NCBI RefSeq assembly: GCF_040564635.1
Contig: NZ_CP159837.1
Coordinates: forward strand, 355,801-419,800
Source of the DNA: Planktothricoides raciborskii GIHE-MW2
Lineage (GTDB): Bacteria > Cyanobacteriota > Cyanobacteriia > Cyanobacteriales > Laspinemataceae
DNA: 64,000 nt
Direction: 5' to 3'
Below are positions 9,208 to 36,790 of this stretch, piece after piece. Both the position numbers and the translations under genes were made by a program. Below the pieces are notes generated by a model. The model searched no databases. It saw only the letters and a program-made list of their open reading frames with translations, and was not told the DNA's origin. Numbering within the stretch: the stretch's first letter is position 1; every line of letters begins with the position of its first letter.

Positions 9208-9239
9208 GGGTTCGGTGGGGTTGGGGTGTAGGGTGTGCG

Positions 9240-9700
9240 GGGTGGTTCTGTAGGGGCGAAGCATTCCGGCAAATGATTTTTGACTGAAACGGAGGATATA
9301 TTACCGGAATGCTTCGCCCTCTGCGGGGTTCAACAATACCAGGGCGAAGCATCCCGGTAATAGGTTGCTGGTTAAGAGCGATAACATATCTGCCGGGATG
9401 CTTCGCCCCTACGGGGTTCATGCCATTATGTAGGGGCGAAGCATGATTGGCAAAGAATCTCTGGGACAAAACCAGCAACCTATTACCCGAATGCTTCGCC
9501 CTCATATTATTTTAGAGGAGAGAAACAGATAATTTTTCCAGCGGTAAGGGCGAAGCATTCCGTAGGGGCGAAGCATTCCGGCAGTCAATTTAATATTCCA
9601 AGCAATAGGTTATCTGCCGGAATGCTTCGCCCGTACATTAATATTTTAAGCAATAATTTATCCGCCGGAATGCTTCGCCCCTACAGGTATTTGTGGTTTA
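9240..9700. repeat. array of about 5 hairpin elements built from inverted copies of (T)GTAGGGGCGAAGCATTCCGG
   Basis: About 10 copies in alternating orientation, arms 45-60 bp apart; same family at 6150-6210, 6465-6480, 54486-54675 and 58800-58870. Confidence 0.75.
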
Positions 9701-10413: not shown

Positions 10414-10703
10414 AGTTTCTGCTCGCGATCGCAAACTATCACTTCTATTAAAACAGCGATCGCCCAATTTTGTCAACATTAGCCATGATTTTTTTATGGT
10501 GCCTAGCTTAATTATTCGATAATTGTAAACCTGTAGGGACACGGCATTGCCGTGTCCTCAAACAATGCCGTGTCCTAAATATGAAAAATTAAGAGCGATC
10601 GCATATTTTTATCGAGGATTAATCGGTGCGTTACGACCCGATTAAAGGTTAAATTTATTTAGCATAAATAGTCGCGGGTCTAACGCACCCTACGCATATT
10701 TTA

Positions 10704-12080
10704 CTAGGTTTGGGTGGGAGCGATCGCGATTTCTAAAGTAAAAATGCTGCCTTTGCCTAACTCACTTTCAACTTTAAGATGGGCTTGATGTTTTTGGGCG
10801 ATCGCTTGGGCAATCGCTAACCCTAATCCAGTGCCACCAGTTTTACGAGAGCGATCGCTATCGACACGATAAAACCGCTCAAAAATATGGCTTTGTTGCT
10901 CCATAGAAATGCCAATCCCGGTATCTTTGACCGTAATAATCGCGGTGCGCTCGCGAAGGGTTAAAATCACCATTACCAAGCCCTCAGCGGTAGTGTATTG
11001 AATCGCATTCGCAATCAAATTTGAGACTAAACGATAAAGTTGTGATTCGTTGCCCAGCACATAAATTTCTTCTGCACAAACTTGACTATTTAATTGAATA
11101 TTAGCAGCGGTAGCCAGTTCTAAAAATTCTTCGGCTAAATCATTAACTAAATCATTTAAACAACAGGGTTTAAACGGTTTTGCCGACATATCTTGCTCTA
11201 AACTGGTTAGCAACAGTAAATCAGCGATGAGTTGGCTTAATCTTCTTCCCTGTCGTTCCACGGTTTGCAGCATGATCGGAATATCTTGCTGATTGGATGA
11301 CCCTAAACGCAGAATAGCTTCTACGGTTGCTAAGAGACTGGCAAGGGGCGATCGCAACTCATGGGCAGCATTCGCGGTAAACTGTTGCTGTTGCTGATAA
11401 GACTGATAAATCGGTTGCATTGCTAATGCTGAAAGCCACCAACTAGAGGCAGCAACTAAGCCCAAAGCGATAAAAAATCCTAGGGTTAAAATTTCTTTAA
11501 TTCTTCTGTTTTCGGCATCAAAAGAGGCTAAAGTGCGGCCAATTTGCAGATAACCCCAAGAACCATGATCGTGTCCGGGAATATGACCCTTAGCACTATG
11601 TAAAATAGTGGTGAATTGGCGATAGCGAATGCTATTTTTATCCTGAATAATTTGCCATGAAGTCGAAGTTAAACTCTGGGGAGGAGGAGAGGGTTGATTC
11701 GGGGAAAAAGCCAGTAGTTTTCCGTGACGATCGAATAAGCGAATGTAATAAAGATTGCGATCGCTAATCCCCGTGGTATGTCGCTGAATTAACGTGGGGC
11801 GAACATGACAAGATTGCCCAACTAAACATAAATCTGGAAAAATTTGCTGCAACACCACTGCCGGATCGCCGGAAGCCGGTAACATGGGTTCCAAGCTATC
11901 ATGCAAGGTTCCGGCGATCGACTCAATTTCTCGTTCCAACGCGACCCAGTTAGACTGAACAATCGATCGATACATCCCAAAACCCGATAAGCCCAAAATT
12001 CCCCCCATCACTACGGCATACCAAAGGGCTAACCGGATGCGACTACGGCGAAATAGCAAATGGATATTCATGGTTTTCAT
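10704..12080 (-). CDS. two-component sensor histidine kinase (two TM helices, periplasmic sensor, HisKA + HATPase_c)
   Basis: H-box AAHELRSPLASL, N/G1/G2 boxes (NLIANAIQYT, DTGIGI, GGTGLGLAIA); start overlaps the upstream response-regulator stop (ATGA). Confidence 0.9.
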   Translation of the reverse strand: MKTMNIHLLFRRSRIRLALWYAVVMGGILGLSGFGMYRSIVQSNWVALEREIESIAGTLHDSLEPMLPASGDPAVVLQQIFPDLCLVGQSCHVRPTLIQRHTTGISDRNLYYIRLFDRHGKLLAFSPNQPSPPPQSLTSTSWQIIQDKNSIRYRQFTTILHSAKGHIPGHDHGSWGYLQIGRTLASFDAENRRIKEILTLGFFIALGLVAASSWWLSALAMQPIYQSYQQQQQFTANAAHELRSPLASLLATVEAILRLGSSNQQDIPIMLQTVERQGRRLSQLIADLLLLTSLEQDMSAKPFKPCCLNDLVNDLAEEFLELATAANIQLNSQVCAEEIYVLGNESQLYRLVSNLIANAIQYTTAEGLVMVILTLRERTAIITVKDTGIGISMEQQSHIFERFYRVDSDRSRKTGGTGLGLAIAQAIAQKHQAHLKVESELGKGSIFTLEIAIAPTQT

Positions 12081-12811
12081 GGTTTCAAGGTAAAGCGATA
12101 GCCTTGACCGGGAACGGTTTCAATCGGGCAATCGCATTGGTAGCTGGCGAATTTCCGCCGCAACAGTCGCATTTGGGCGGCGACAACATTACTAATCGGT
12201 TCTTCATCGATATCCCAAAGTTGCTGGCGAATTTTGCTGCCGGAAATAATTCGATTGGGATTTTGCATCAAATAGGCAAGTACCTGAAATTCTTTGATGG
12301 TTAAAGGAATCATCAGGGGCGGGCGTTCGCTTTGTTGAACCGATAGCTGATTATTCCCATGATCCAGGGTAAACTCTCCCACCGTCAAGGTTAGAGGTTG
12401 TAGCTGGGGCGATCGCCGCTGAAGTGCCCGCAATCGTGCCAGCAATTCTTCCATCACAAAGGGTTTGACTAAATAGTCATCGGCTCCCGCATCCAACCCC
12501 GCTACCCGATTTTCCGGCTGTCCCAATGCGGTCAGCATCAGCACAGGTAAAGGATTTTTATGTAATCTGAGTTTTTGACACAACTCCAGACCGGACAATC
12601 CGGGAAGCAACCAATCCACGATCGCCACGGTGTAGTCCGTCCATTGGCTTTCGATGCAGTCCCATGCGCGTGTACCATCGGTCAGCCAATCCACCACATA
12701 TTTCTCACCCATCAGAACTTGCTTAATTGCCAGTCCTAAATCTGTCTCATCTTCCACCAGTAAAATTCGCATCGATTCACGGAAATCAACCACGGGGTTG
12801 ATTTTACCCAA
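12077..12811 (-). CDS. OmpR-family response regulator (receiver + winged-helix DNA-binding)
   Basis: MRILLVEDETDLG...D at the phospho-acceptor position; C-terminal trans_reg_C motifs (LTIKEFQVLAYLMQNPNRIISGSKI). Confidence 0.9.
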   Translation of the reverse strand: MGKINPVVDFRESMRILLVEDETDLGLAIKQVLMGEKYVVDWLTDGTRAWDCIESQWTDYTVAIVDWLLPGLSGLELCQKLRLHKNPLPVLMLTALGQPENRVAGLDAGADDYLVKPFVMEELLARLRALQRRSPQLQPLTLTVGEFTLDHGNNQLSVQQSERPPLMIPLTIKEFQVLAYLMQNPNRIISGSKIRQQLWDIDEEPISNVVAAQMRLLRRKFASYQCDCPIETVPGQGYRFTLKP

Positions 12812-12907
12812 ACATGGGCTATTTCATCTCAATTTCATCTGTGCTTTGGCAGACTATGAAAAATTTGAGTTGATTTTTGTTAAACCCCCTAGTTATTGTC
12901 AGGAGTA

Positions 12908-13573
12908 ATGATGAAAAGCTTTCCGCTAGTCAGTTCCATTCTTGCAGCCACTTTAACCATCAGTTGCCCCACCATTGTGTTTGCTCATGTGGGACATGGG
13001 GATGAATTCCAAGCAACTGGGGGAATTAACCGAGTGCAGGTTAACCCGCAAACCGATCAAATGTTGGGCATTGTGGTGACAGCGATCGACGCTACGACTG
13101 CTGATGGTTCTGGGGTGATGATTCCCTTTACTGCCTTAGTTGATGCGGACGGCAAGCAGCTTGTTTTTGTCCAATACAAAAATTTTTATGAGCCGGTGGA
13201 AGTGACCACGGGTGCAACCCAAGGGGATTTGATTTCGGTGACGCAAGGGTTGTCCGTTGGGGAAAAGCTGGTGACTCAGGGCAGCTTATCCCTGTATGCG
13301 GAATCGCGCAAAACTCAAACCGCCGATGCTGCCACAACTCCAGAGCCGATTTCTGCTCCCGCACCCGTTGCTTCGGCACCAGTTTCCCCGGCAACCGACC
13401 AGACCCATGATACTTCTGGCAATATGGTGCAATCCTCTGGGGAACAGTCTGGTGAAACGACTCAGAAATCCGGTGGTTTCCCAATGGGGATTTTGGCCGC
13501 CCTTGGGGGTGGGGCAGCGTTATTGGTGGGAGCGATCGCCGTTGTGGGCAACCGCAAGAAAGGGGGCGTTTAA
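12908..13573 (+). CDS. secreted/membrane-anchored protein resembling only the C-terminal membrane-proximal beta-barrel domain of RND periplasmic adaptors, with an N-terminal HxxHGDEF site and a C-terminal TM anchor
   Basis: Signal peptide; HVGHGDEF; core ...QMLGIVVTAID...MIPFTALVDADGKQLVFVQYKNFYEPVEVTTGATQGDLISVTQGLSVGEKLVTQGSLSL resembles the C-terminal domain of HlyD/CusB-type adaptors; Ala/Pro-rich linker; C-terminal GILAALGGGAALLVGAIAVVGNRKKGG anchor. Confidence 0.55.
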   Translation: MMKSFPLVSSILAATLTISCPTIVFAHVGHGDEFQATGGINRVQVNPQTDQMLGIVVTAIDATTADGSGVMIPFTALVDADGKQLVFVQYKNFYEPVEVTTGATQGDLISVTQGLSVGEKLVTQGSLSLYAESRKTQTADAATTPEPISAPAPVASAPVSPATDQTHDTSGNMVQSSGEQSGETTQKSGGFPMGILAALGGGAALLVGAIAVVGNRKKGGV

Positions 13574-13704
13574 GTAGGTGGGCAGAAATAAATGCACTAC
13601 AGACCCCACGAGAGAGAAGAAAGGCTGTCATTCCCGCGAAGGCGGGAATCCAAAGCCTATTGGCGGAAAACGAAAAGTGCAATTAATTATGTTCACCTAC
13701 TTAA
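13570..13704. mobile_element. MITE-like element (about 135 bp, TIR TAAGTAGGTG) containing the GTCATTCCCGCGAAGGCGGGAATC palindrome; copy 1
   Basis: Near-identical inverted copy at 52531-52659; the palindromic core gives the spurious IPAFAGMT ORF translation. Confidence 0.75.
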
Positions 13705-13710
13705 TTTAAA

Positions 13711-16700
13711 ATGCTGAATTCACTATTGAATCAAATCCTGAAAAACTCGATCGCCCAACGGTGGCTGATTGTGGTTGGTGCGATTTTTGTCACCGTCTGG
13801 GGCATCTTTACCATCACCCTTATGCCGTTAGATGTGTTTCCCGAATTTGCGCCGCCCCAAGTGGACATTCACACGGAAGCCTCTGGACTGGCCCCAGAGG
13901 AAGTGGAAACTCAAATTACGGTGCCGATCGAAAGTGCTGTCAATGGCTTGCCCGGAGTCACGATGGTGCGATCGTCCTCCAAAGTTGGACTATCAATGGT
14001 TCATGTAGTCTTTGACCAAGAGGCAGATATTTATAAAGCCCGACAAGCGGTGACAGAGCGACTTCAGCAGGTGACAAATCAACTGCCAGAGGGAACGCAT
14101 CCGCCAGAAATTTCGCCCCTGGTTTCGCCTTTGGGGACAATTTTGCAGTACGCCTTCACTGTTAATGGACAAGGGCAAACTTCGTTAATGGATTTGCGCC
14201 GTCTTGTGGAAGTCACCCTGAGTAATCAAATTCTTTCTGTAGCGGGAGTCTCTCAAGTCACGGTTTATGGGGGAGATGAACGGCAGGAACAGGTCTTAGT
14301 CGATCCCGCAAAGCTGCGATCGCTGAATGTTTCCCTTACCGAAGTCACCGATGCCGCCAGAAGTGCCAATGCCAATGCTCCGGGCGGCTTTCTCATTGGT
14401 GGCGGTCAAGAGTTATTGGTGCGGGGTATGGGGCAAATCAAATCGATTGAAGATTTGCAACAGTCTGTTGTCAAAGTCGAAAATAACCAACCGATTCTCT
14501 TAAAAGATGTGGCAGAGGTGAAAACCGGCAATGCCTTAAAACGCGGGGATGCCAGTTTTAATGGCCAGCCTGCGGTGGTGCTGATGATTAATAAACAGCC
14601 CGATGTGGATACGCCGACGGTTACGAAAGCCGTAGAAACGGTGATGGCATCTTTGCAGAGGACATTTCCCCCAGATGTGCAGCTTGTACGGACATTTCGC
14701 CAGTCTAATTTTATTGATACGGCGATTCAAAATGTCAGTGGTTCTCTGTTAGAAGGGACTATTATTGTGTCCGTAATTATGCTGCTGTTTTTGATGAATT
14801 GGCGCACGGCGGCGATTACTCTGAGCGCAATTCCCCTATCTTTATTGATTGGGTTAATGTTGATGAAAGCCTTTGGCTTGGGCATTAATACCATGACATT
14901 AGGCGGTTTAGTGGTGGCGATCGGCTCAGTGGTGGATGATTCGATCGTAGATATGGAAAACTGCTATCGCGGACTGCGAAAAAATCAAGCCCAGGGCAAT
15001 CCAAAACATCCCTTTCAAGTGGTTTATGACACATCGGTAGAAGTGCGTTTAGCCGTAATTTTTTCCACGGTAATTATCGTGGTTGTCTTTGCACCAATTT
15101 TTAGTTTGACCGGGGTGGAAGGACGCATTTTTGCCCCAATGGGTTTGGCTTATTTACTCTCGATTTGTGCGTCTACTTTCGTCGCCATGACCCTTTCTCC
15201 AGCACTTTGTGCTATTTTGTTAGCCAACCAAACCCTGCCACAAGAAGGCACGTTGATTTCACAATGGGCCGAACGCTTATATCGTCCGTTGCTAAATCTA
15301 TCGTTAAAAACTCCTCAAATTATTCTCGGTGTGGCACTCGCGGGATTAGTCGCTACTTGCGCGATCGTGCCATCTTTAGGAAGGGTGTTTTTGCCAGAAT
15401 TTCAAGAAAAATCTTTAGTAAATTCGATGGTATTGTTTCCTGGAGTTTCCCTGGAAATGACCAATCGCGCTGGGATGGCATTGTCTAATTTAATTCAAGA
15501 TAATCCTCTCTATGAATGGGTGCAAGTGCGGGCTGGACGCGCCCCCGGAGATGCTGACGGTGCTGGGGTGAATATGGCTCATGTGGATGTGGAACTGAGC
15601 GATCGCGCCCTGGAAAAGAGAGAAGCTAGTATTAAACAACTGCGGGAAACATTCCTCAAGTTACCGGGAGTTGCGCCTAATATTGGCGGATTTATTTCTC
15701 ACCGGATGGATGAGGTTTTATCCGGGGTGAGAAGTGCGATCGCCATCAAAATATTTGGTTCTGATTTAATCGAATTACGGAAAATTGGCGAACAAGTTAG
15801 AGATGCAATTCAGCCCATTACTGGAGTGGTAGACTTGCAACTTGAACCGCAATTACCCATTCGTCAGGTACAAATTCAGTACAGTCGCGCAGCCGCAGCC
15901 AACTATGGTTTAAGCATGGCGGATATTTCTGATGTAGTCGAAACCGCCCTCAACGGTCGAATCGTCTCCCAAGTACCGGAAAATCAACAATTAATTAATA
16001 TTGTGGTGGGCTTATCAGAATCAGCCCGAAATAATCTTGATGCGATTCGCGCTATTCCCATTAGCACTCCCACGGGACAAATCATTCCCCTGAGTACCGT
16101 TGCCAAAGTGGAATATGGCATGGGAGCCAATGTAGTAAATCGGGAAAATGTGTCTCGCTTAATTGTAGTTTCTGCCAACGTCCAAGGGCGTGACTTAGGC
16201 AGTGTGGTGGGCGATATTCAATCGCAAATTCAACAAAAAATCCAACTACCCAATGGTTATTTTATCCAATACGGTGGACAATTTGAGGCAGAAGAAAATG
16301 CTACTAATAATTTATTATTATATAGCATTTTAGCGGCGATCGTTATTACAGTCTTAATGTTCTTTTCGGTGAAATCACTCTCCGCCACGATCGCCATTAT
16401 GATTAACCTACCTTTGGCTTTAGTTGGTGGGATTGTTTCCATTATTTTGACTGGTGGCGTGATTTCCGTTGCCTCTTTAATCGGATTTATTACCTTGTTT
16501 GGGGTTGCGGTGCGAAATGGTTTGTTATTAGTCGATAACTATAACCAAAAATTCGCCGAAGGAATGCCCCTGAAAGATGTAATTATTAATGGTTCTCTAG
16601 AACGAGTCAATGCCATTCTGATGACCGCTTTAACCTCCGCTTTAGGAATGTTACCATTAGCGATCGCCAGTGGCGCTGGAAATGAAATTTTACAACCCTT

Positions 16701-16866
16701 AGCGATCGTGGTTTTAGGTGGTTTATTTACTTCCACGGCGTTGACATTATTAGTCATTCCGGCTTTATATGCCAAATTTGGCAAACAATTGATGCCAAAA
16801 CCAAAGCCAGCCGTTGTAGAAATCAGTTCTTTTTTCAGACCTGAATCATCAACGGAAGCAAGCTAA
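13711..16866 (+). CDS. RND efflux permease, heavy-metal-efflux (CusA/CzcA-like) family
   Basis: 1051 aa, 12-TM RND architecture; N-terminal pattern ...VNGLPGVTMVRSSSKVGLSMVHVVFDQEADIYKARQAV and TM4 AIGSVVDDSIVDMEN resemble CusA/CzcA. Confidence 0.85.
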   Translation: MLNSLLNQILKNSIAQRWLIVVGAIFVTVWGIFTITLMPLDVFPEFAPPQVDIHTEASGLAPEEVETQITVPIESAVNGLPGVTMVRSSSKVGLSMVHVVFDQEADIYKARQAVTERLQQVTNQLPEGTHPPEISPLVSPLGTILQYAFTVNGQGQTSLMDLRRLVEVTLSNQILSVAGVSQVTVYGGDERQEQVLVDPAKLRSLNVSLTEVTDAARSANANAPGGFLIGGGQELLVRGMGQIKSIEDLQQSVVKVENNQPILLKDVAEVKTGNALKRGDASFNGQPAVVLMINKQPDVDTPTVTKAVETVMASLQRTFPPDVQLVRTFRQSNFIDTAIQNVSGSLLEGTIIVSVIMLLFLMNWRTAAITLSAIPLSLLIGLMLMKAFGLGINTMTLGGLVVAIGSVVDDSIVDMENCYRGLRKNQAQGNPKHPFQVVYDTSVEVRLAVIFSTVIIVVVFAPIFSLTGVEGRIFAPMGLAYLLSICASTFVAMTLSPALCAILLANQTLPQEGTLISQWAERLYRPLLNLSLKTPQIILGVALAGLVATCAIVPSLGRVFLPEFQEKSLVNSMVLFPGVSLEMTNRAGMALSNLIQDNPLYEWVQVRAGRAPGDADGAGVNMAHVDVELSDRALEKREASIKQLRETFLKLPGVAPNIGGFISHRMDEVLSGVRSAIAIKIFGSDLIELRKIGEQVRDAIQPITGVVDLQLEPQLPIRQVQIQYSRAAAANYGLSMADISDVVETALNGRIVSQVPENQQLINIVVGLSESARNNLDAIRAIPISTPTGQIIPLSTVAKVEYGMGANVVNRENVSRLIVVSANVQGRDLGSVVGDIQSQIQQKIQLPNGYFIQYGGQFEAEENATNNLLLYSILAAIVITVLMFFSVKSLSATIAIMINLPLALVGGIVSIILTGGVISVASLIGFITLFGVAVRNGLLLVDNYNQKFAEGMPLKDVIINGSLERVNAILMTALTSALGMLPLAIASGAGNEILQPLAIVVLGGLFTSTALTLLVIPALYAKFGKQLMPKPKPAVVEISSFFRPESSTEAS

Positions 16867-17102
16867 AACCTGTCTGGTTATTCCAGAGTATAAAAGTGCG
16901 AAACATGGCGCGATTGTCTTTACCAAGTTGGTAGGCGATCGCTTTTTTCATAACCACCCGTCAAAAGCTAAAAAAAGGGGGAAAAAGAGGGGCTAATTTG
17001 TGATAAATTATCAATTTCATGTGCTGCTATGGTCAGTAAGTGATTCCCGAATTCGGTCTGAAGGGCGATCGCTGGTTTTGAGATTCGCCTCTCTCTGGTA
17101 AG

Positions 17103-17432
17103 ATGGAAGTTATTCCGCTAAATCATCATTCGGCTGTGAAAAATTTACTTTTACTGGGAACCTTAAGTTTTACTATTGCTTTTAGCTGCGGCTTAGTTGT
17201 CGAGAAAAATGTGACTAAAAGTGCGGCGATCGGTGCGATCGCCACCATTAGCACCCTGAGTAGTGGGTTGGTTTTAAGCAAAGTCTCAGAAAAAGAACGT
17301 CAAAAGCTTCAGGGACAGACCGAAAAAGTAAAAAGCCTGGAAAGTCAAATATCAAGCCTGACAGAGAAAAAGACCAACCTGGTCAAAGTCATTAATAATA
17401 AAACTCGTTCTAAAACAAAAGTTGAACAATAA
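17103..17432 (+). CDS. small membrane-anchored coiled-coil protein, or N-terminal part of an interrupted longer gene
   Basis: 109 aa; two predicted TM helices then heptad-like EKERQKLQGQTEKVKSLESQISSLTEKKTNL; ends at a TAA that is in frame with the downstream ORF. Confidence 0.45.
   Translation: MEVIPLNHHSAVKNLLLLGTLSFTIAFSCGLVVEKNVTKSAAIGAIATISTLSSGLVLSKVSEKERQKLQGQTEKVKSLESQISSLTEKKTNLVKVINNKTRSKTKVEQ
17430..17432 (+). other. in-frame TAA separating two halves of one continuous 460-codon frame (17103-18485)
   Basis: Translation from 17433 continues in the same frame (VNAKLKEIDRLKEEINSLKLQRDTLQDVIF...YNYILEGLEKSLVFYDPQKHKTFENYLESLQPAAEELWSAYRF...) with no stop until 18485, and no ATG/GTG/TTG until the TTG at 17712. 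Confidence 0.6.
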
Positions 17433-17711
17433 GTCAACGCAAAACTAAAAGAGATCGACCGGCTAAAAGAAGAGATTAATTCTCTAAAACTCCAGCGAGA
17501 CACTCTGCAAGATGTAATCTTCAATCTGGAAACTAAAGAGAAAAAAATCCCGGCTAAACGTTGGGTTAAACCTAAAGATAAACCCATTAAGAGTACCGGA
17601 TTATACAATTACATTTTAGAGGGATTAGAGAAATCGCTAGTTTTTTATGACCCCCAAAAACACAAAACATTTGAAAATTATTTAGAATCACTCCAACCAG
17701 CGGCAGAAGAA

Positions 17712-18485
17712 TTGTGGTCTGCTTATAGATTCAATCAGGTTCAAGTCAATTATGGGGAGCCGTCAATTCAAGCCGCTTATTTAATCCGTTATTATCCCCA
17801 CTATGCTTACATGAATTACCAAATATTAGAAATGATTCATCGTCAAAATCTATTTAAATGCTTCACAGATGAAACCCTAGAAGTATGCTTGTTTGGCGCT
17901 GGTCCTTGTCCAGAAATAGTTGGGTTAAGTAAACTATTGTCAGAAAATTATCAATTTATCAAAAAATTAGTGGTAAATGTATATGATCTTGCTGGCGCTC
18001 AGTGGTCTTTAAGCAGAGAGATTACTGAGAAATTTATTGTCCCCGAATACTGGTATGGAGATTTAACAGTAAATAGTAATTACCTGGATTTATGTGAATT
18101 TAATTCGCTTCAGTCAGTTAAGCAGAGCATTAAAAGAAGCCGGTTATTTGTTTTTCAAAATTGCCTAAATGAGATTTATAATGTATACACAGTTCAATTT
18201 AATTTGAATTTTTTGTTAGATGAAATTCCTGTGGGAGGGGCGATGGTGATTATAGACTTATGCAATTACAGTCAAAATGTCACCATCGTTGATGAATTGG
18301 AAAAAAAAGTAAAAAATAGAGGTGACTTTGAAATATATTGCCCACCAATTGATAACCTTAACATTAAAGCTTGCCCAAATCTGCCACAAATTATTAAAAA
18401 ACATCTTTTGACCAGTAAAGGTAGGTTAGTCCCTCGGAGTAAAGATATCCAGTGTCTTTTTATCAGTTTACACAAAATTATTTGA
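17712..18485 (+). CDS. hypothetical protein, possible class-I methyltransferase-like fold; putative partner of the convergent DUF1848 gene
   Basis: TTG start in the ORF track; the real N-terminus may lie upstream (see in-frame stop). Motif-I-like VCLFGAGPCPE followed by an acidic beta-2 end (NVYDL) suggests a Rossmann/SAM-MTase-like fold; AT-rich codon usage. Confidence 0.45.
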   Translation: MWSAYRFNQVQVNYGEPSIQAAYLIRYYPHYAYMNYQILEMIHRQNLFKCFTDETLEVCLFGAGPCPEIVGLSKLLSENYQFIKKLVVNVYDLAGAQWSLSREITEKFIVPEYWYGDLTVNSNYLDLCEFNSLQSVKQSIKRSRLFVFQNCLNEIYNVYTVQFNLNFLLDEIPVGGAMVIIDLCNYSQNVTIVDELEKKVKNRGDFEIYCPPIDNLNIKACPNLPQIIKKHLLTSKGRLVPRSKDIQCLFISLHKII

Positions 18486-18582
18486 GTATAAAATTAATCT
18501 AAATTTATTAGTTCAAATGAATTGCAAATATGTAGAATATTCTGCGATCGCCCAACTTAATTAAAAATTTTCAAATATGCGA

Positions 18583-19473
18583 CTATTCCACTAAAACAGG
18601 TGAGTTAGGATCGTGTTTTCGGTAATTTTCGCGGGCGCGATCAAAACTGGTCGTTGCATAGCAATACTGACAGCCAAACAAGCAAGTATCATACATACCA
18701 ATATCTCGGCTTTGGACACAACCACAAGCTTCTCGTTGACCCGGATCTTTTTGATGATTCACGTCTATGTCAAACACCTCCTTAATATAATCATCATCGA
18801 TACATTTACCATGCTGAATGCCATAGGCGGATAAATCACAAGATTCCGCACAGCTAAAAAGCCTTATCCCATATTTATAGGCAATTTTTGATATTTCTGG
18901 CAAAAACTTGTCCTTGACTTCCGGGATATCTGCAAAATTAATAATTTTAATATTTTGTTCTCGTTCAATTGTTTTCAGACGAGGATTATTTTTAGCGTAC
19001 CGATCCATAAAACTCAAAACGCACCGAGTAGCGGCGGGGAATAATCTATCGGCAATATCGCCGAATTGCTGAAGATGAAACTCGATATCGGTTGCCGAAC
19101 TAAAAACAATCGGATCGTAGCGCCAAATAACTTTGCGGTAGCCGATCGCCTGGACTAATTCGTGAAATGTGGCGATCGCCCGTTCCCAGGGAATGTTATT
19201 CTGGTCTAGAAACCGGGGATTATTCATAATTGTAAACTGAAAATAATATTTATATCCCCGTTCATCTAACTCTCGTAAGGATGACAACAAAGGTTTCGGG
19301 TTGCGCGTCCAGAAAACGATAACTTCTACATTTTCTGGAGTTAAATCAATCCGGGAAACTTGCTGGCGATTAAAGGGATTAGGCACCAGGCAGTAGCCCG
19401 CACGAATGCGATTCATAAACCATTGATGGTAAAAGGCAGGAATATCAGTCCGTCGGCTGGCACTAATAATCAT
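18583..19473 (-). CDS. DUF1848-family protein with C-terminal CxxxCxxC (radical-SAM-type Fe-S cluster motif)
   Basis: MIISASRRTDIPAFY N-terminus typical of DUF1848; C-terminal CGC...CLFGCQYCYAT contains C-x3-C-x2-C. Confidence 0.8.
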   Translation of the reverse strand: MIISASRRTDIPAFYHQWFMNRIRAGYCLVPNPFNRQQVSRIDLTPENVEVIVFWTRNPKPLLSSLRELDERGYKYYFQFTIMNNPRFLDQNNIPWERAIATFHELVQAIGYRKVIWRYDPIVFSSATDIEFHLQQFGDIADRLFPAATRCVLSFMDRYAKNNPRLKTIEREQNIKIINFADIPEVKDKFLPEISKIAYKYGIRLFSCAESCDLSAYGIQHGKCIDDDYIKEVFDIDVNHQKDPGQREACGCVQSRDIGMYDTCLFGCQYCYATTSFDRARENYRKHDPNSPVLVE

Positions 19474-19577
19474 ATTATCTAATCGATCTGTGTAATTATC
19501 GCACTACCATAATAGTATATCCCTACTAAATATTATGTAAGCTTTAAAAAATATTGAATATAATTTAAAATATGAGC

Positions 19578-19610
19578 ATATAAATTATTCTAGGCTAGAA
19601 TAATTTATAT
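19578..19610. promoter_or_regulatory. 33-bp perfect palindrome ATATAAATTATTCTAG-G-CTAGAATAATTTATAT (operator-like)
   Basis: 16-bp perfectly complementary arms around a single central base, in the AT-rich 310-bp divergent intergenic region between the DUF1848 gene and the 19784 gene. Confidence 0.4.
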
Positions 19611-19783
19611 TCACTTATTTAATTTAAATTAAACTAATTTCAAGGCAAAACAAGCCCAAAAAACACCAGGTTTACCCTCTACCTATATTATAGACAGTAT
19701 ATACACAGTGCCTAGACTTTGCATTGAGTTTCCATTTTGTTATAAAATGATGTAAACCCACTGGCAAAAACGCCATTGAATTT

Positions 19784-20608
19784 ATGCAAATTATCAACAT
19801 TATCGTTTCCGGTCTGCTTACCTTGGTTTCCCCAGTTGGGGCTGTTTTCGATCGCGTTGCGGAAAAAGCTGTCCTGGATCAACTTTACGCAGCGGAAGAA
19901 TTAGAAGTCCGAGTAGATAATACTCCCAATTATCAGTTACTCCAAGGCAAAATAGACCGACTGCGGTTTGCCGGTCGTGGGTTATACCTAACTCCAGAAT
20001 TTCGGATTGACACCATAGAATTTGAAACGGATCCCTTGGACGTGGATCTGGAACGTTTGCGGGCAGAAAATCAAGGGTCTGTGCCGCAATTTCTGCGCCA
20101 ACCTTTACAAGGGGCGATCCGGTTAGTGCTTACGGAGGCAGACTTAAATCAAGCCCTGCGATCGCCTGCGGTATTAGAACAACTCCGTCAGGGTCAAGGG
20201 ACATTTAGCGAGGGCACGGAAGCAGAATCACTGTTACAACGGTATCAACTGGTAAATCCTGAGATTGATTTTTTAGGAGAAAATCGATTAAGCTTGCAAG
20301 CAGAAATTCAAGATCAAAGAGACAACGATCGCTTAACAGTGAGGATAGAATCAGAGGTAAGGGTAGTCGAGGGATCTAAAATAAATTTGGTTAACCCAAA
20401 GCTGTGGTTGAATGATGAGGAAGCCCCAGCTAATATAAGTCGGGTGCTCGCTAAATTCGTGAATCAAAAGCTGGATTTAACCTCTTTTGACTCCCAAGGA
20501 CTCCAAGCGCGAGTGATCCAGTTAAATATGAATGGCGAACAAATAGAGATTGTCAGTTTTCTGCGGATCGATAATGCCAAAGTAGCAGCCACTCTGAATC
20601 AGCGATGA
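19784..20608 (+). CDS. conserved hypothetical protein with N-terminal TM anchor (possibly DUF2993/LmeA-like)
   Basis: 274 aa; N-terminal hydrophobic helix then acidic/Gln-rich repetitive soluble region; family assignment is from memory and weak. Confidence 0.45.
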   Translation: MQIINIIVSGLLTLVSPVGAVFDRVAEKAVLDQLYAAEELEVRVDNTPNYQLLQGKIDRLRFAGRGLYLTPEFRIDTIEFETDPLDVDLERLRAENQGSVPQFLRQPLQGAIRLVLTEADLNQALRSPAVLEQLRQGQGTFSEGTEAESLLQRYQLVNPEIDFLGENRLSLQAEIQDQRDNDRLTVRIESEVRVVEGSKINLVNPKLWLNDEEAPANISRVLAKFVNQKLDLTSFDSQGLQARVIQLNMNGEQIEIVSFLRIDNAKVAATLNQR

Positions 20609-20832
20609 AATTTTCAGGATGCGGATCGAAAAGCTTTGTATTATTTACCAGTTCTCTCAGCATATTGCTATAATGTAACGTGATATTTGAAACGTGAGAT
20701 TTGAAATTAGCGATCGCTGCCATAATTCTCACAGCTTGATATTTATACTGGGAATGCAAGGCGCTTTGACTGAATACTAATTTAAATTCCCACCCTAGAT
20801 TCTGTGCCATCCCAAAGGAGAAAAAACCAGAA

Positions 20833-21513
20833 ATGGAAGAGCAACAAAAAATTAATAAAACACCTGCCGACTTCAAATTTCTTGCGGGTATTTCTGCCCT
20901 CGTATTAATCGCTGGTGGCGCCACCGCTGGATGGCTCTGGACTTCTCAGAAATCCGAGTCTCCCGTCACCAAACCAAACCCGGTGGAAACATCGCAACCA
21001 TCAGTGACACCGAACAATCAAGCAACAACGGTGCCCCCAGAAGTGATCGCCCCCAACACCAATGCCAGCGCCCCCAACGCCAGCAAATCGGTAGACATCT
21101 ATCTGTTGAAAGATAACGGTCTCAAATCTGAACTGGTGCCGGTGCCCATCAAGATGCAGGGGAAATCTGAACCCGCAGAAATATTAACCGGGGCATTTCA
21201 GCAGTTACTTAGCAACCAGGAGAATCAGTCTGACGCTTTCAGCAATATTCCTCAAGGGACTCAACTGCGTAGCCTGACCGTTAAACCTGATGGGATTCAT
21301 GTTGATTTGTCCCAAGAATTTAAAGATGGCGGTGGCAGTAACTCCATGATTGGTAGACTCCAGCAGGTGCTTTACACCGCTACCAGTTTAGATCCGAATG
21401 CTCCCGTGTGGATTTCCGTAGCCGGTGAACCCCTAACAGTTTTAGGGGGTGAAGGATTGGAAGTCCCTCAACCGCTGACTCGGCAGATATTTGAATCTGA
21501 GTTTCAACCGTAA
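20833..21513 (+). CDS. GerMN-domain protein with N-terminal TM anchor
   Basis: TM helix, Pro/Thr-rich linker, then VDIYLLKDNGLKSELVPVP...IGRLQQVLYTATSLD...VWISVAGEPLTVLGGEGLEV typical of the GerMN domain. Confidence 0.7.
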   Translation: MEEQQKINKTPADFKFLAGISALVLIAGGATAGWLWTSQKSESPVTKPNPVETSQPSVTPNNQATTVPPEVIAPNTNASAPNASKSVDIYLLKDNGLKSELVPVPIKMQGKSEPAEILTGAFQQLLSNQENQSDAFSNIPQGTQLRSLTVKPDGIHVDLSQEFKDGGGSNSMIGRLQQVLYTATSLDPNAPVWISVAGEPLTVLGGEGLEVPQPLTRQIFESEFQP

Positions 21514-21579
21514 ACAATTTTCGGTAATGGCGATCAAAAATCGCGAGGGAATTAAGGGCGCTTGAAGAAAGCGCCCTGA

Positions 21580-21930
21580 TTATTTTCCATTGAGGCTGAT
21601 GTTGCGAAAATGGCGAGCCTGCTGTTCAATCCTCAAAGCGAGGCGATCGCAAACTAACTTACATAATTCAAAAATTAGGGGATCCTCTACTCGATAATAA
21701 GCAGAAGTTCCTTCGCTACGACGGGTCAAAATTCCCGCTTGTAGCATCACTTTCAAATGCTTGGAAACATTCGCTTGACTGGTCTCAGTGGCGGCGACTA
21801 ACTCTTGCACGCATTTTTCCTCATCGCGCAGCAAATTTAAGAGCTTTAGACGCATTGGCTCGCTCAAAATGCTGAAATATTCAGCCACGTGTTGAATCAC
21901 TTCTGGGGGAACAGGCGGCGTTCCTTTCAT
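21580..21930 (-). CDS. ArsR/SmtB-family transcriptional regulator
   Basis: 116 aa; ...FSILSEPMRLKLLNLLRDEEKCVQELVAATETSQANVSKHLKVMLQAGIL... winged HTH of ArsR type. Confidence 0.85.
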   Translation of the reverse strand: MKGTPPVPPEVIQHVAEYFSILSEPMRLKLLNLLRDEEKCVQELVAATETSQANVSKHLKVMLQAGILTRRSEGTSAYYRVEDPLIFELCKLVCDRLALRIEQQARHFRNISLNGK

Positions 21931-22117
21931 GCAAGTTTATCTCAAAGTACCCACGGGCAAATTATAGCATCGATCGTTTTTATAACAATCAAGTAATAAA
22001 TATTCGTCAGAATTCAGCATATTGATAGACTCTGGCCAAAAATCAGCCCTAAAAAAATCAATCCACCCCGGCAGATCGAATCAATACCGAGGTGATTTCT
22101 TAAATAGTCAATTGATA

Positions 22118-22687
22118 TTAATCCGGTTGAATCCGCATTAAAACTTGCTCATATTCCACCGGCTGGGCATTATCAACCACAATTTCCATCACTTGACCAG
22201 ACACTTCGGCCTCGATCTCATTCATCAGCTTCATTGCTTCAATAATGCAGACCGTTTGACCAATGCTGACGCGATCGCCAACCTTGACAAAAGGAGGCTC
22301 GTCTGGGGCTGGGGCGCGATAGAAAGTACCCACCATCGGGGCAGTCACCACTACCCACTTATTGTCTAGGGATGGGGGTGCGGCGGGGGTGCCTGGAGAT
22401 GAGGCACCTGCTTTCAGGCTCGGTTCGCCAGCCGCCGCCGAAGGCATGGGCGAAATGGGTGTTGCGGGAACCGTTGCCCCAGAAACAGAAGAGATATCTT
22501 CTGGAACACCCATCACTTTATCTGTAATTTGTAACTTGGGAGCCACCGGAGGAAAGACTCGTTCCCCATCAGCAATCCCTTTACGCACCGTGAGTTCCAA
22601 ATCGCCGCTTTTTAAGATCATCTCGGAAATATCAGTTTGATCTAAAGCGGCGATTAGCTCTCGGAGTTGGTTTAAGTCCAATTCCAC
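22118..22687 (-). CDS. accB: acetyl-CoA carboxylase biotin carboxyl carrier protein
   Basis: Ala/Pro-rich linker and C-terminal biotinyl domain with the CIIEAMKLMNEIEAE motif. Confidence 0.9.
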   Translation of the reverse strand: MELDLNQLRELIAALDQTDISEMILKSGDLELTVRKGIADGERVFPPVAPKLQITDKVMGVPEDISSVSGATVPATPISPMPSAAAGEPSLKAGASSPGTPAAPPSLDNKWVVVTAPMVGTFYRAPAPDEPPFVKVGDRVSIGQTVCIIEAMKLMNEIEAEVSGQVMEIVVDNAQPVEYEQVLMRIQPD

Positions 22688-22906
22688 AGTTGATTTGACC
22701 CCTTCATATGGCGCGATCGATCGGTGAGCGGGAAAAGTTCTGGCTTTCGGAGATCAAACAATTCTGTGGCTTTCGCCCTGATGAGCAAACATCAGCGTCG
22801 ATGCTTAAACTCAACTGATTCCGAGTGCCAGCCTCGCGGCCTGCCGATCGCCTTACTCTAAACATTTACTGAATCACAAGCAATGAATCACAAGCCAAGC
22901 GGCTGA

Positions 22907-23464
22907 TTATTCACGACCCAAGTAGCTATCATTGCGCGTATCAATTTTGATCCGCTCGCCAATAGAAATAAACAAAGGAACCATTACTTGAGCGCCTGTG
23001 GAAACAATCGCGGGCTTGGTGCCACCTGTTGCCGTGTCACCTTTAACTCCTGGATCGGTTTGGGTCACTTCTAAAACTACAGAATTGGGTAGTTCCACTT
23101 CTAGGACTTGGCCGTTCCAGGTAATCACATTCACTTCCATACTTTCTGTGAGATACTTAACGCGATCTCCAATCTGGTCTGGATTCAAGCGGGCTTCTTC
23201 GTAAGTTTCCATATCCATAAAGACGAACTGTTCGCCCTCTTTATAGGTATGCTGCATGGTACGTTTTTCTAAGGTGGCTTGAGGGACAGTTTCCCCAGCG
23301 CGGAACGTCCGCTCAACAACGCTCCCACTCTGCACGTTTTTTAGCTTGGTTCGCACAAAGGCAGAACCTTTACCGGGCTTCACGTGGAGAAATTCTACCA
23401 CCCGCCAAACCGCCCCATCTAATTCAATCGTGACGCCTGGTCGAAAATCGTTACTGGAAATCAT
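22907..23464 (-). CDS. efp: elongation factor P
   Basis: [43 protein letters not shown]...; accB directly downstream, as in the common cyanobacterial efp-accB arrangement. Confidence 0.95.
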
Positions 23465-23771
23465 TAATTTTATCTAGGGGAGAACAATCGGCATTTTATT
23501 GTACCGCGAGCGTACACGATTACTCATTTAACCTACTTAATGTTTTTTGGCTATTATTACCGATTAATTATTAAAAATTTGTTATAAAATCGAAAAACGG
23601 GAGTCATTCAGCCCCCAAGAATCACCAAGAATCACCAAGAATCACCAATAATGGTGACTAATGGTGGCGATCGCCAAGATTTTGCCAGAATAATCCACCG
23701 AATTCCATGAATCGACCGGCGCGGTGTGGGAAGATTTCATAGACGCCTTTGTTGATCTCAAAAACCAATCC

Positions 23772-24923
23772 ATGCCTTTTTCGAGCAAAAAAATCACAAA
23801 TTTATTAAAAAGTTGGCTGAAAACTAGCCTATTGCTCCTGCTGCTAGTCAACTTATCCATCGGTCTTAGTGCTGCCGCTTGGTGGGACTCTGGCAGTAGC
23901 CAAACCCCTCAGAAGCGTGAAAGCATTTTGCCACCGGGAAATGCGATTACCAATCCCAAAGCTCTGTTACGCTACGCTTTACCCATTGACAATCAACCCA
24001 TCCGCAAAATCCAAAGCTTGTTGGAAAGTATCTCCGACGAACTGCGGGCTAAACGCTGGAAACCCATCGAGGGCTATATCTCAAAGGTAGAAGTCATCCT
24101 GAAAACTCAGGACGATCAAATTCTCCAAGATATTCCCGAAGCGAAACAAGCTGAAGCCCAGGCTCTGATTGCTCAAATCCAAGCAGACCTCAACTCGTTA
24201 CGCACAGCGGTTGTGGCTGAAAATAAACCCAGCACTCAGCAAGCGCGAAATCAACTTTTAGACTTGGTGGGTGAAATTGAGTCATTAATGGTGAAAGAAT
24301 TTCCCTTTGAAGTTCCTTCAGAATATAGTCATCTACCCCAGTTAAAAGGTCGCGCTACGGTGCAGATGGAAACTGAGTTCGGTTACCTAACAATGGTTGT
24401 AGATGGTTACAGTGCCCCGGTTACAGCGGGTAATTTTGTGGATCTGGTGCAACGCGGTTTCTATGACGGTTTAGAATTTACTCGCGCCGAGGGTTCTTAT
24501 GTCCTCCAAACCGGAGATCCACCGGGAAAAGAAGAAGGGTTTATCGATCCAAAAACTGGCGAATATCGCAATATTCCTTTGGAAATTTTACTCCGAGGCT
24601 ACGATAAGCCGATTTATGGCATTACCTTAGAAGATGCCGGTCTATATCGGGAAAAGCCGGTTCTTCCTTTCTCGGCTTATGGGGCTTTAGCAATGGCTAG
24701 ACCGGAAGAAGAACCAGATGGTGGTTCTTCACAGTTTTTCTTTTTCTTGTTTGAACCAGAATTGACTCCCGCTGGTTTGAATTTACTCGATGGACGCTAT
24801 AGCGTTTTTGGCTTTGTCACCGAAGGTAAAGAGGTTTTGGAGAAACTGAAACGGGGAGATAAAATTCTCTCGGCCAAAGTCATTGAAGGGGCAGAAAATT
24901 TACAGTCTCCTCAAAGTATCTAA
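23772..24923 (+). CDS. cyclophilin-type peptidyl-prolyl cis-trans isomerase with N-terminal signal/helical domain (TLP40/CYP38-like lumenal PPIase)
   Basis: C-terminal cyclophilin motifs (GYSAPVTAGNFVDLVQRGFYDGLEFTR..., SQFFFFLF, GRYSVFGFVTEG); likely start at the Met preceding a signal-peptide-like KTSLLLLLLVNLSIGLSAAAW; the ORF track begins 16 codons earlier. Confidence 0.85.
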   Translation: MPFSSKKITNLLKSWLKTSLLLLLLVNLSIGLSAAAWWDSGSSQTPQKRESILPPGNAITNPKALLRYALPIDNQPIRKIQSLLESISDELRAKRWKPIEGYISKVEVILKTQDDQILQDIPEAKQAEAQALIAQIQADLNSLRTAVVAENKPSTQQARNQLLDLVGEIESLMVKEFPFEVPSEYSHLPQLKGRATVQMETEFGYLTMVVDGYSAPVTAGNFVDLVQRGFYDGLEFTRAEGSYVLQTGDPPGKEEGFIDPKTGEYRNIPLEILLRGYDKPIYGITLEDAGLYREKPVLPFSAYGALAMARPEEEPDGGSSQFFFFLFEPELTPAGLNLLDGRYSVFGFVTEGKEVLEKLKRGDKILSAKVIEGAENLQSPQSI

Positions 24924-35832: not shown

Positions 35833-36507
35833 GTGAAAGCAGTCATTTTATTGTCGGGAGGACTTGATTCCTCGACGGTGCTGTATCAAGCGAAGGCCGA
35901 TGGTTGTGAATGTTATGCAATTTCGTTTGATTACCAACAACGGCATCGCCGCGAGTTGGATTCGGCAGCAGCGATCGCGAGGGTCGCAGGAGTGGTGGCC
36001 CATCAGGTGATTACCTTTGATTTGCGGCAGTGGGGGGGGTCAGCGTTAACCGATGATGGGATTGATTTGCCGGAAGGGCGATCGCTCTCGGAAATGGCAA
36101 GTCAAATTCCGGTGACTTATGTCCCAGCCCGAAATACGATATTTCTCAGTTTTGCTTTGGCTTATGCGGAGGCGATCGCTGCCGAACGAGTCTATATTGG
36201 GGTCAATGCTTTGGACTATTCGGGATATCCCGATTGTCGCCCAGATTACATTCAAGCGATGCAGGAAGTGTTTCGTCTGGGGACAAAACAAGGTCGCGAA
36301 GGACAGGCGATCGCTATTATCAGCCCCTTACTGGAGTTGCACAAAACCGAAATTATTCAATTAGGCAATAAATTGGGCGTCCCTTGGCAACATACTTGGT
36401 CTTGTTATGCCGGAGAGGAAAAAGCTTGTGGGGTCTGTGACTCCTGCCAATTGCGGTTAGCGGCTTTTGCTGAATTGGGCTTATCGGATCCGTTGCCTTA
36501 TCGGTAA
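35833..36507 (+). CDS. queC: 7-cyano-7-deazaguanine synthase
   Basis: MKAVILLSGGLDSST PP-loop and C-terminal Zn-binding CYAGEEKACGVCDSCQLR. Confidence 0.95.
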   Translation: MKAVILLSGGLDSSTVLYQAKADGCECYAISFDYQQRHRRELDSAAAIARVAGVVAHQVITFDLRQWGGSALTDDGIDLPEGRSLSEMASQIPVTYVPARNTIFLSFALAYAEAIAAERVYIGVNALDYSGYPDCRPDYIQAMQEVFRLGTKQGREGQAIAIISPLLELHKTEIIQLGNKLGVPWQHTWSCYAGEEKACGVCDSCQLRLAAFAELGLSDPLPYR

Positions 36508-36790
36508 TGGGGAGCGGGGTGTAGGGTGTAGGGTGTAGGGTGTAGGGAGAAGCCGCCGTCGTGTAGGGTGTAGGGTGTAGGGAGAAGCCGCCGTCGTGTA
36601 GGGTGTAGGGTGTAGGGTGTAGGGAGAAGCCGCCGTCGTGTAGGGTGTGGGGGGAAGAGAGAAAAGAGAATAGAGAAAAGAGAATAGAGAATTTTCCTAT
36701 GCATCCTATGCATCCTATGCATCCTATGCATCCTATGCATCCTCTTCCCCTACACCCTACACCCCCCGCCCCTACCCACCCATAGATTAA
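36508..36790. repeat. complex repeat element: (GGGTGTA)n G-tract heptamers, 3 copies of GAGAAGCCGCCGTCGTGTAGGGTGTAGG, (AGAGAAAAGAGAATAG)x2, (ATGCATCCT)x5, closing with complementary CCCTACACC heptamers
   Basis: Direct reading; the GGGTGTAGGGTGTAGGGTGTAGGG run fits the G3N4G3N4G3N4G3 G-quadruplex consensus; the two ends are inverted complements forming a long hairpin. Confidence 0.75.

Follow-up and report, generated by a model that had tools for sequence, protein, structure and literature searches.

Introduction

The pairing of an AlkB dioxygenase with a methyltransferase, as in ALKBH8, serves the modification of the wobble uridine of tRNA. In a different setting, DUF1848 has been linked as an accessory gene to the UG25 defence-associated fusions of a methyltransferase with a reverse transcriptase (RT) (PMC9226505). 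The locus described here shares elements with both systems, and its methyltransferase is likened below to Rsm22/METTL17. It is located in a 64,000-nucleotide (nt) stretch of the genome of the cyanobacterium Planktothricoides raciborskii GIHE-MW2 (NCBI RefSeq assembly GCF_040564635.1, contig NZ_CP159837.1, positions 355,801–419,800 of the forward strand; hereafter the window), a strain for which our literature search found nothing. The subject is the gene at positions 17136–18485, which is interrupted by an in-frame TAA and adjoins a DUF1848 gene. It is very probably a recent, strain-private nonsense allele of one membrane-tethered methyltransferase gene. The product of the complete gene is predicted to begin with a membrane hairpin of two helices, to continue in a coiled-coil stalk (~90 residues) and to end in a class I S-adenosylmethionine (SAM)-dependent methyltransferase domain. 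A G-to-T change at 17430, in GIHE-MW2 alone, turned codon 99 from GAA into TAA. Translation would then end after 98 residues, yielding the membrane hairpin and half of the coiled coil, and the methyltransferase domain would not be made. The 350 codons after the stop are unchanged relative to intact alleles, as expected if this allele were a very young null mutation and an incipient pseudogene. We infer that methyltransferase function has been lost in GIHE-MW2.

The interrupted gene

Reading frame: Two open reading frames (ORFs) on the forward strand, 17103–17432 and 17712–18485, share a common frame (offset 609 = 3 × 203), and the TAA at 17430–17432 is the sole in-frame stop within 17103–18485. 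It is followed by 93 open codons, and the first in-frame ATG, GTG or TTG is the TTG at 17712–17714, equivalent to residue 45 of the domain model. The original prediction for this locus, made from the DNA letters and their translations, had described exactly this arrangement of one frame, one TAA and no canonical start before that TTG, and the window sequence bears it out. Counted over all six frames, the window has 6393 runs between stops, of which only 1.7% are at least 93 codons long and 0.25% at least 350, so the open stretch after the TAA is not a chance product. When pairs of same-frame stretches flanking one stop were surveyed, each stretch open for 90 codons or more, this locus was the sole real gene with its first restart codon as far as 93 codons downstream; ordinary same-frame neighbours in the window start only a few codons past the stop. 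Homology runs uninterrupted across the TAA position.

Gene boundaries: The frame had first been described as 460 codons long. Its continuity, with one TAA, stands, but the true gene has 449 codons and starts at the GTG at 17136. Orthologs begin at MKNLLL, which corresponds to GTG 17136 in the window and to an ATG at that codon in other strains; because the ortholog alignment places the start there, the gene spans 17136–18485 and the stop falls at codon 99. The ATG at 17103 is missing in one more distant relative (L001), and the leader around it is not conserved: a conspecific locus (L035) has eight substitutions relative to the window in 17102–17120 and, within the gene, differs at 17430 only. 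Judged by this alignment, the 5' extension called by the ORF finder from ATG 17103 (17103–17135, forward strand) is probably an untranslated leader outside the gene. The truncated translatable frame (17136–17432, forward strand) opens with the GTG, holds 98 sense codons and ends in the premature TAA; it covers the two transmembrane (TM) helices and the N-terminal half of the coiled coil. What follows (17433–18485, forward strand) consists of 350 sense codons and the original TGA, with no further lesion by comparison with the intact alleles. The NCBI annotation currently lists two hypothetical proteins, XCM37525.1 (109 amino acids, aa) and XCM37526.1 (217 aa, from the ATG at 17832), which are better described as fragments of one disrupted gene whose ortholog is WP_054465135.1.

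Membrane hairpin and stalk: Two hydrophobic segments, residues 3–22 (mean Kyte–Doolittle hydropathy 2.2) and residues 29–48 (mean 1.63), define the two predicted TM helices, encoded by 17142–17201 and 17220–17279 on the forward strand. They lead into a predicted coiled-coil stalk (17289–17552, forward strand; residues ~52–139 of the intact protein) that is halved by the stop. Residues 52–139 have hydrophobic occupancy of the heptad a/d positions of 0.68, versus 0.28 overall, with no proline and a single glycine, and along this stretch a PDB profile search and PADLOC give solely matches to coiled-coil proteins. Hydrophobicity, heptad periodicity and the PDB profile matches thus agree with the two TM helices and coiled coil proposed earlier for the upstream part. 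The further proposal of a membrane anchor and coiled coil followed by a folded domain that begins before 17712 was also correct, and the intact protein is found in many cyanobacteria. This TM-plus-coiled-coil form of the methyltransferase is intact in many Oscillatoriales.

Origin of the stop codon

Comparison with orthologs and conspecific strains: A search with the fused translation returned 54 protein clusters, of which at least 18 are single proteins of 443–458 aa that cover 97% of the query. Full-length ortholog clusters come from Tychonema, Microcoleus, Planktothrix, Floridaenema and others, and carry Glu at the stop position. Orthologs are therefore a single protein of ~450 aa with Glu at the site, not two genes sharing a conserved stop. 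Intact conspecific proteins are P0060, P0059 and P0057, the last being WP_054465135.1, and the 90% cluster of the NCBI-annotated fragments contains intact 449-aa proteins of other Planktothricoides strains, WP_054465135.1 among them; P0060 matches the conceptual translation of the window at all 448 other residues and differs at E99. The same result is obtained at the DNA level. Contigs from four different conspecific samples (L035, SRR7764488; L036, ERZ23496469; L037, SRR7253983; L038, ERR4603500) agree with the window at 1349 of the gene's 1350 nt, and the sole difference is a G instead of a T at 17430. Six conspecific loci (L039–L044) differ from the window by 5 nt within the gene, again including G at 17430, and GAA also occupies the site in the more distant L001, L003, L005 and L034. 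The premature stop (17430–17432, forward strand) is a derived, strain-private G>T transversion at 17430 that converts GAA (Glu99) into TAA. The mutation is very recent, because no second lesion has accumulated downstream of it. A recent nonsense mutation was the first of three explanations offered in the original prediction, and the one-protein orthologs with Glu, together with the single-base difference from conspecifics, support it.

Two other accounts of the site and its history were considered and dropped. Set against L001 and L003, the site reads TAAGTC in place of GAATAC, three substitutions in a cluster of the kind that a multi-nucleotide or quasi-palindrome template-switch event might leave. 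L005 and the conspecific strains have GAAGTC, which rules this out: the Y100V change came first, and a single G>T made the stop. Relaxed selection on the branch leading to the window (~8 non-synonymous and 7 synonymous changes, omega ~0.3) was superseded, as the substitutions concerned are common to all P. raciborskii strains with an intact gene. The strain-specific branch holds the stop only, and the ratio of non-synonymous to synonymous rates (dN/dS) is consequently without power on this allele.

Authenticity of the base: It is unlikely, on balance, that the strain really carries GAA and that the deposited 7.2-Mb assembly shows a false T at 17430, although the difference is a single base and the T is seen solely in the GIHE-MW2 genome and in one Sequence Read Archive run, probably of the same project, with G in all other samples. 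The Logan assembly of that run (SRR29644585; L002), built anew from reads, also yields T at 17430, in an 11.6-kb contig that matches 8753 nt of the window at 100% identity, TAA included; because this independent assembly reproduces the T, an assembler or polishing artefact is unlikely. Nor is the consensus noisy nearby. Against five conspecifics, the window has two private differences in 17095–24485 (7.4 kb), namely the stop and a synonymous GGA>GGT at 24272, and zero private indels. Consensus-level substitution errors are rare on any current platform. We infer that the T is truly in the DNA; the same T in the Logan assembly and the clean surrounding 7.4 kb make a sequencing or assembly error, the second of the earlier explanations, improbable.

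Lesions in relatives: The gene is also broken elsewhere in the clade. Two NCBI assemblies (L003:8001-9361 and L004:1126-2486) carry a 1-bp deletion at the equivalent of ~18245, outside homopolymers, that leaves ORFs of 371 and 82 aa. In a JGI metagenome contig (L034:5001-6360), 1 bp has been inserted into an A4 run after the equivalent of ~18273, giving a 385-aa product; this insertion could be a sequencing error. The lesion-bearing relatives share 80–82% aa identity with the window protein, and DUF1848 is intact beside the frameshifts of L003/L004 and L034. The methyltransferase gene of L001 and L005 is intact. In this small sample, the pattern suggests that the gene is dispensable in the Planktothricoides clade, in which the oxygenase gene described below is missing.

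The methyltransferase domain

Fold and motifs: The domain (residues 156–449; 17601–18482, forward strand) is predicted to adopt a Rsm22/METTL17-like class I SAM-methyltransferase fold, in which a Rossmann-like sheet comes after five N-terminal helices. Its boundaries were taken from the structural model (mean predicted local distance difference test score, pLDDT, of 93.6) and from short natural homologs that begin at LYxYI. The conserved onset of the domain, LYNYILEGLE (17601), coincides with the start point of natural stand-alone homologs of ~300 aa (M-x-LYxYI). As in class I enzymes, the predicted domain has an alternating β/α fold with a seven-stranded sheet, a Gly-rich motif I after β-1 and an acidic residue that ends β-2. 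The F, G and E of motif I (FGAGPCPE) are invariant, and the Asp of VYDIA is invariant across 40 homologs; together with LDLC and FQNCLNE, these family-invariant elements fit a working SAM-binding site.

Profile libraries barely recognize the family. The C-terminal 300 residues have no above-threshold assignment in Pfam or NCBIfam. Methyltransf_34 (PF11312) scores 12.3–13.2 bits with the window protein (E 0.05–0.095), below the gathering threshold of 26 bits, and matches 9 of the 40 homologs (best E 5.1e-05). Rsm22 (PF09243) does not match the window protein, nor is it among the families most often matched by the 40 homologs. Searches with the PDB profiles, PADLOC and PHROGs gave no match to the methyltransferase domain, only to the coiled coil. 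The family itself comprises 917 clusters at 50% identity in a profile search of 1.84 billion representatives, and the majority of these clusters are stand-alone proteins of ~300 aa.

Accessory domains: Other members carry the domain in fusions with a C-terminal Hsp70-like ATPase, an S1 RNA-binding domain or TPR (P0226, P0232, P0245, P0246, P0251, P0296, P0212, P0191 and P0321), the first five of which are 800–900 aa long. The 800–900-aa homologs had been considered as UG25 methyltransferase-RT fusions. This was rejected, as they are Hsp70-like ATPase fusions and others carry TPR or S1. The TM-plus-coiled-coil form is one more accessory-domain variant of the methyltransferase domain.

Possible restart downstream of the stop: A split into two working products, a 98-residue membrane/coiled-coil fragment and a separately initiated soluble methyltransferase, is quite improbable. 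Homologs without TM helices and coiled coil do exist naturally (P0021 and P0030, ~300 aa), and gene callers do report an ORF past the stop (257 or 217 aa). The stand-alone homologs, however, begin at LYxYI (17601), and 17433–17711 holds no in-frame ATG, GTG or TTG. The product from TTG 17712 would start 37 residues into the conserved domain, past invariant residues, and would be without helices H7-18 and H31-37 and most of H39-48, which are three of the five N-terminal helices. The NCBI start at ATG 17832 (model residue 85; 217 aa) costs 77 domain residues, invariant ones included, and all five N-terminal helices. Near-cognate in-frame codons between the stop and 17712 are not accompanied by any Shine-Dalgarno-like sequence, and the split arrangement is private to one strain. 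No downstream start restores a complete functional domain.

Possible read-through: Programmed read-through or recoding of the stop, by which the full-length membrane-anchored methyltransferase would still be made and possibly regulated, needs no start codon and would suit the perfectly intact frame past the stop, but it is highly improbable, given that the stop is not conserved (GAA in all conspecific strains and all orthologs), that no programmed mechanism could have evolved around a stop private to one strain, and that a mutation this young, with nothing else changed, already accounts for the intact downstream frame. Of the 29 long ORFs in the window, 17, among them the adjacent RND pump gene, end in TAA, which makes it the commonest genuine stop. 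UAA followed by G, the context found here, is an efficient terminator in bacteria, as known from E. coli. Predicted folding of the 121 nt around the stop is no more stable than that of shuffled sequences (z = -0.32), the Rfam scan gave no recoding element at gathering score, and the window has no tRNA genes. With a private stop, UAA as the main stop and neither structure nor known element, this third of the earlier explanations is left unsupported.

Weighing the nonsense allele: Several considerations weigh against a null allele of this gene. The T is read from assemblies and not from reads, which leaves room for a consensus error or for a mixed population in a polyploid culture. SRR29644585 is maybe the genome's own read set, in which case the Logan contig is independent of the assembler and not of the library. 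The allele shows no further decay, so selection tests such as dN/dS are powerless here. Low-level read-through, or reinitiation at a near-cognate codon, would also be compatible with the sequence. A recent, strain-private nonsense mutation of the methyltransferase gene is still, in our judgement, the very probable account.

Two features overlap the coding region on the opposite strand. An 87-aa antisense ORF (17345–17608, reverse strand) runs across the stop, where the Logan gene caller places a gene of 80 aa (L002:3666-3908). This ORF is probably an artefact that arises because the AAG/GAA-rich sequence coding for the coiled coil is open on the opposite strand. A stretch at 17639–17698 (reverse strand) matches the aptamer of the Na+ riboswitch (RF03071), but its Rfam score of 29.4 bits (E 0.0012) falls short of the gathering score, 40.5. 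Lying antisense within a coding region, this match is most likely due to chance.

Neighbouring genes

DUF1848: Downstream of the methyltransferase gene lies an intact convergent gene for a 296-aa DUF1848 protein (18583–19473, reverse strand; Pfam PF08902, 3.9e-99; PADLOC RTasDUF1848, 6.7e-49). The protein has an invariant CX3CX2C near its C-terminus (C263, C267 and C270), a radical-SAM cluster motif, and four more invariant cysteines. A search for solved structures close to DUF1848 found none. The structural model, of medium confidence (pLDDT 77.8), gives weak PDB matches (TMq 0.34–0.42) to a partial β/α barrel as in SPL/Elp3, and its predicted fold is suggestive of similarity to radical-SAM enzymes. 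DUF1848 lies convergently downstream of the methyltransferase gene in 8 of 30 loci, with a remnant in L022. The adjoining loci belong to the Planktothricoides clade, Floridaenema, Roseofilum, one metagenome-assembled genome and two Nostocales loci. The DUF1848 family is highly conserved and comprises at least 8000 clusters, with identity of at least 54% among those listed; because it is far larger than the methyltransferase family, DUF1848 cannot generally depend on this methyltransferase. Two loci hold partial copies: in L022 (L022:6998-7243) just the C-terminal 82 residues of DUF1848 are left beside the methyltransferase gene, and L033:6001-6475 matches the methyltransferase in two frames over residues 222–379 only. 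Both seem to be parts of the module proposed below that have likewise decayed.

AlkB-type oxygenase: A gene for an AlkB-type 2-oxoglutarate (2OG)-Fe(II) oxygenase (PF13532, E 1e-35 to 1e-40) stands directly upstream of the methyltransferase gene, on the same strand and at a distance of 0–90 nt, in 23 of 30 loci (L006-L008, L010-L012, L015 and L017-L032; for example L006:5242-5958 and L015:5317-5967). L016 is a 24th such locus, in which the C-terminal end of the oxygenase lies at the contig edge. The adjacency spans many cyanobacterial orders and is much stronger than the association with DUF1848; all three genes occur together in L015 and L016. L014 retains a 30-aa oxygenase remnant (L014:5903-5992). 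No AlkB-like oxygenase gene or remnant was found in the 64-kb window or in the sequence available for L001, L003, L005, L034, L009 and L013. The original prediction had called the methyltransferase the partner of the DUF1848 protein, a label that is only partly supported. The two genes are indeed adjacent here, and DUF1848 adjoins the methyltransferase gene in 8–10 of the 30 loci overall, but the oxygenase is the commoner neighbour, and the disparity in family size also speaks against the label.

Upstream segment: A segment of ~6.4 kb (~10701–17094) is polymorphic for presence or absence within the species: the window and L035-L038 have it, and L039-L044 do not. It holds the gene of a CusA/AcrB-type resistance-nodulation-division (RND) pump (13711–16866) and three further ORFs. 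Its junction, at 17095, lies 41 nt upstream of the start codon at 17136. In the strains without the segment (L039-L044), the methyltransferase gene starts with ATG, not GTG.

Other same-frame pairs in the window: Apart from the methyltransferase locus, same-frame pairs were tried as further split genes and proved to be ordinary adjacent genes or non-coding frames in repeat DNA. One 2307-codon ORF ends in a TAA directly beyond which its frame remains open for another 145 codons (36353–36793, reverse strand), beginning ...GCIGCIGCIGC, which indicates simple-repeat DNA and not coding sequence. The region 7443–9444 (reverse-strand frames) and its counterpart L039:3505-5354 are repetitive, with many internal repeats of 80–85% identity within a large repeat-protein gene; these yield several spurious same-frame ORF pairs parted by TAG.

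Significance and comparison with known systems

The stop itself is of little importance, being the null allele of one strain, and what follows from it in practice is a corrected annotation. The value of the finding is modest: GIHE-MW2 would be a cultured natural knock-out of an uncharacterised family, and the intact allele that exists elsewhere differs at one base of the gene. Possible specialist interest is limited to the gene neighbourhood of the family and to its Rsm22/METTL17-like fold. One may tentatively propose, as a possibility we consider rather doubtful, that the AlkB-type oxygenase, the Rsm22/METTL17-like methyltransferase and the convergent radical-SAM-like DUF1848 protein form an undescribed three-gene module of cyanobacteria. 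If so, the target of the module would be a nucleic acid or some other macromolecule, its methyltransferase would be naturally knocked out in GIHE-MW2, and the repeated, independent inactivation in the oxygenase-less Planktothricoides clade would be decay after the loss of one partner.

Rsm22/METTL17: The likeness of the window protein to Rsm22 and METTL17 is one of structure only, at 12–13% sequence identity and with no PF09243 match. Rsm22 and METTL17 are methyltransferase-like proteins of mitochondrial small-subunit assembly, and METTL17 has an Fe-S domain and binds the ribosome; here the resemblance extends to the predicted fold alone. Unlike those proteins, the window protein is cyanobacterial and is predicted to be tethered to the membrane through a TM hairpin and a coiled coil.

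UG25: As in the UG25 systems, a methyltransferase domain is genetically associated with DUF1848, and the DUF1848 protein of the window matches the PADLOC model RTasDUF1848. The two differ in that neither the window locus nor the long homologs have an RT domain and in that the methyltransferase has no PADLOC match.

ALKBH8: The arrangement resembles the ALKBH8-type pairing of an AlkB dioxygenase and a methyltransferase insofar as the methyltransferase gene follows the oxygenase gene in 23–24 of 30 loci; by analogy, this suggests that oxygenase and methyltransferase may act jointly. Unlike ALKBH8, the two are encoded by separate genes with no fusion, the methyltransferase is not Trm9-like, and the oxygenase is missing from the window and the closest relatives.

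Strain-specific nonsense alleles: The interrupted gene compares closely with strain-specific nonsense alleles described in bacteria. There is one derived substitution, conspecifics are intact, the annotation is split into two hypothetical proteins, and the gene has been frameshifted independently in related lineages. Nothing about it is unusual by that standard: the allele is very young and free of secondary lesions, and intact alleles of the gene that are otherwise identical are on record.

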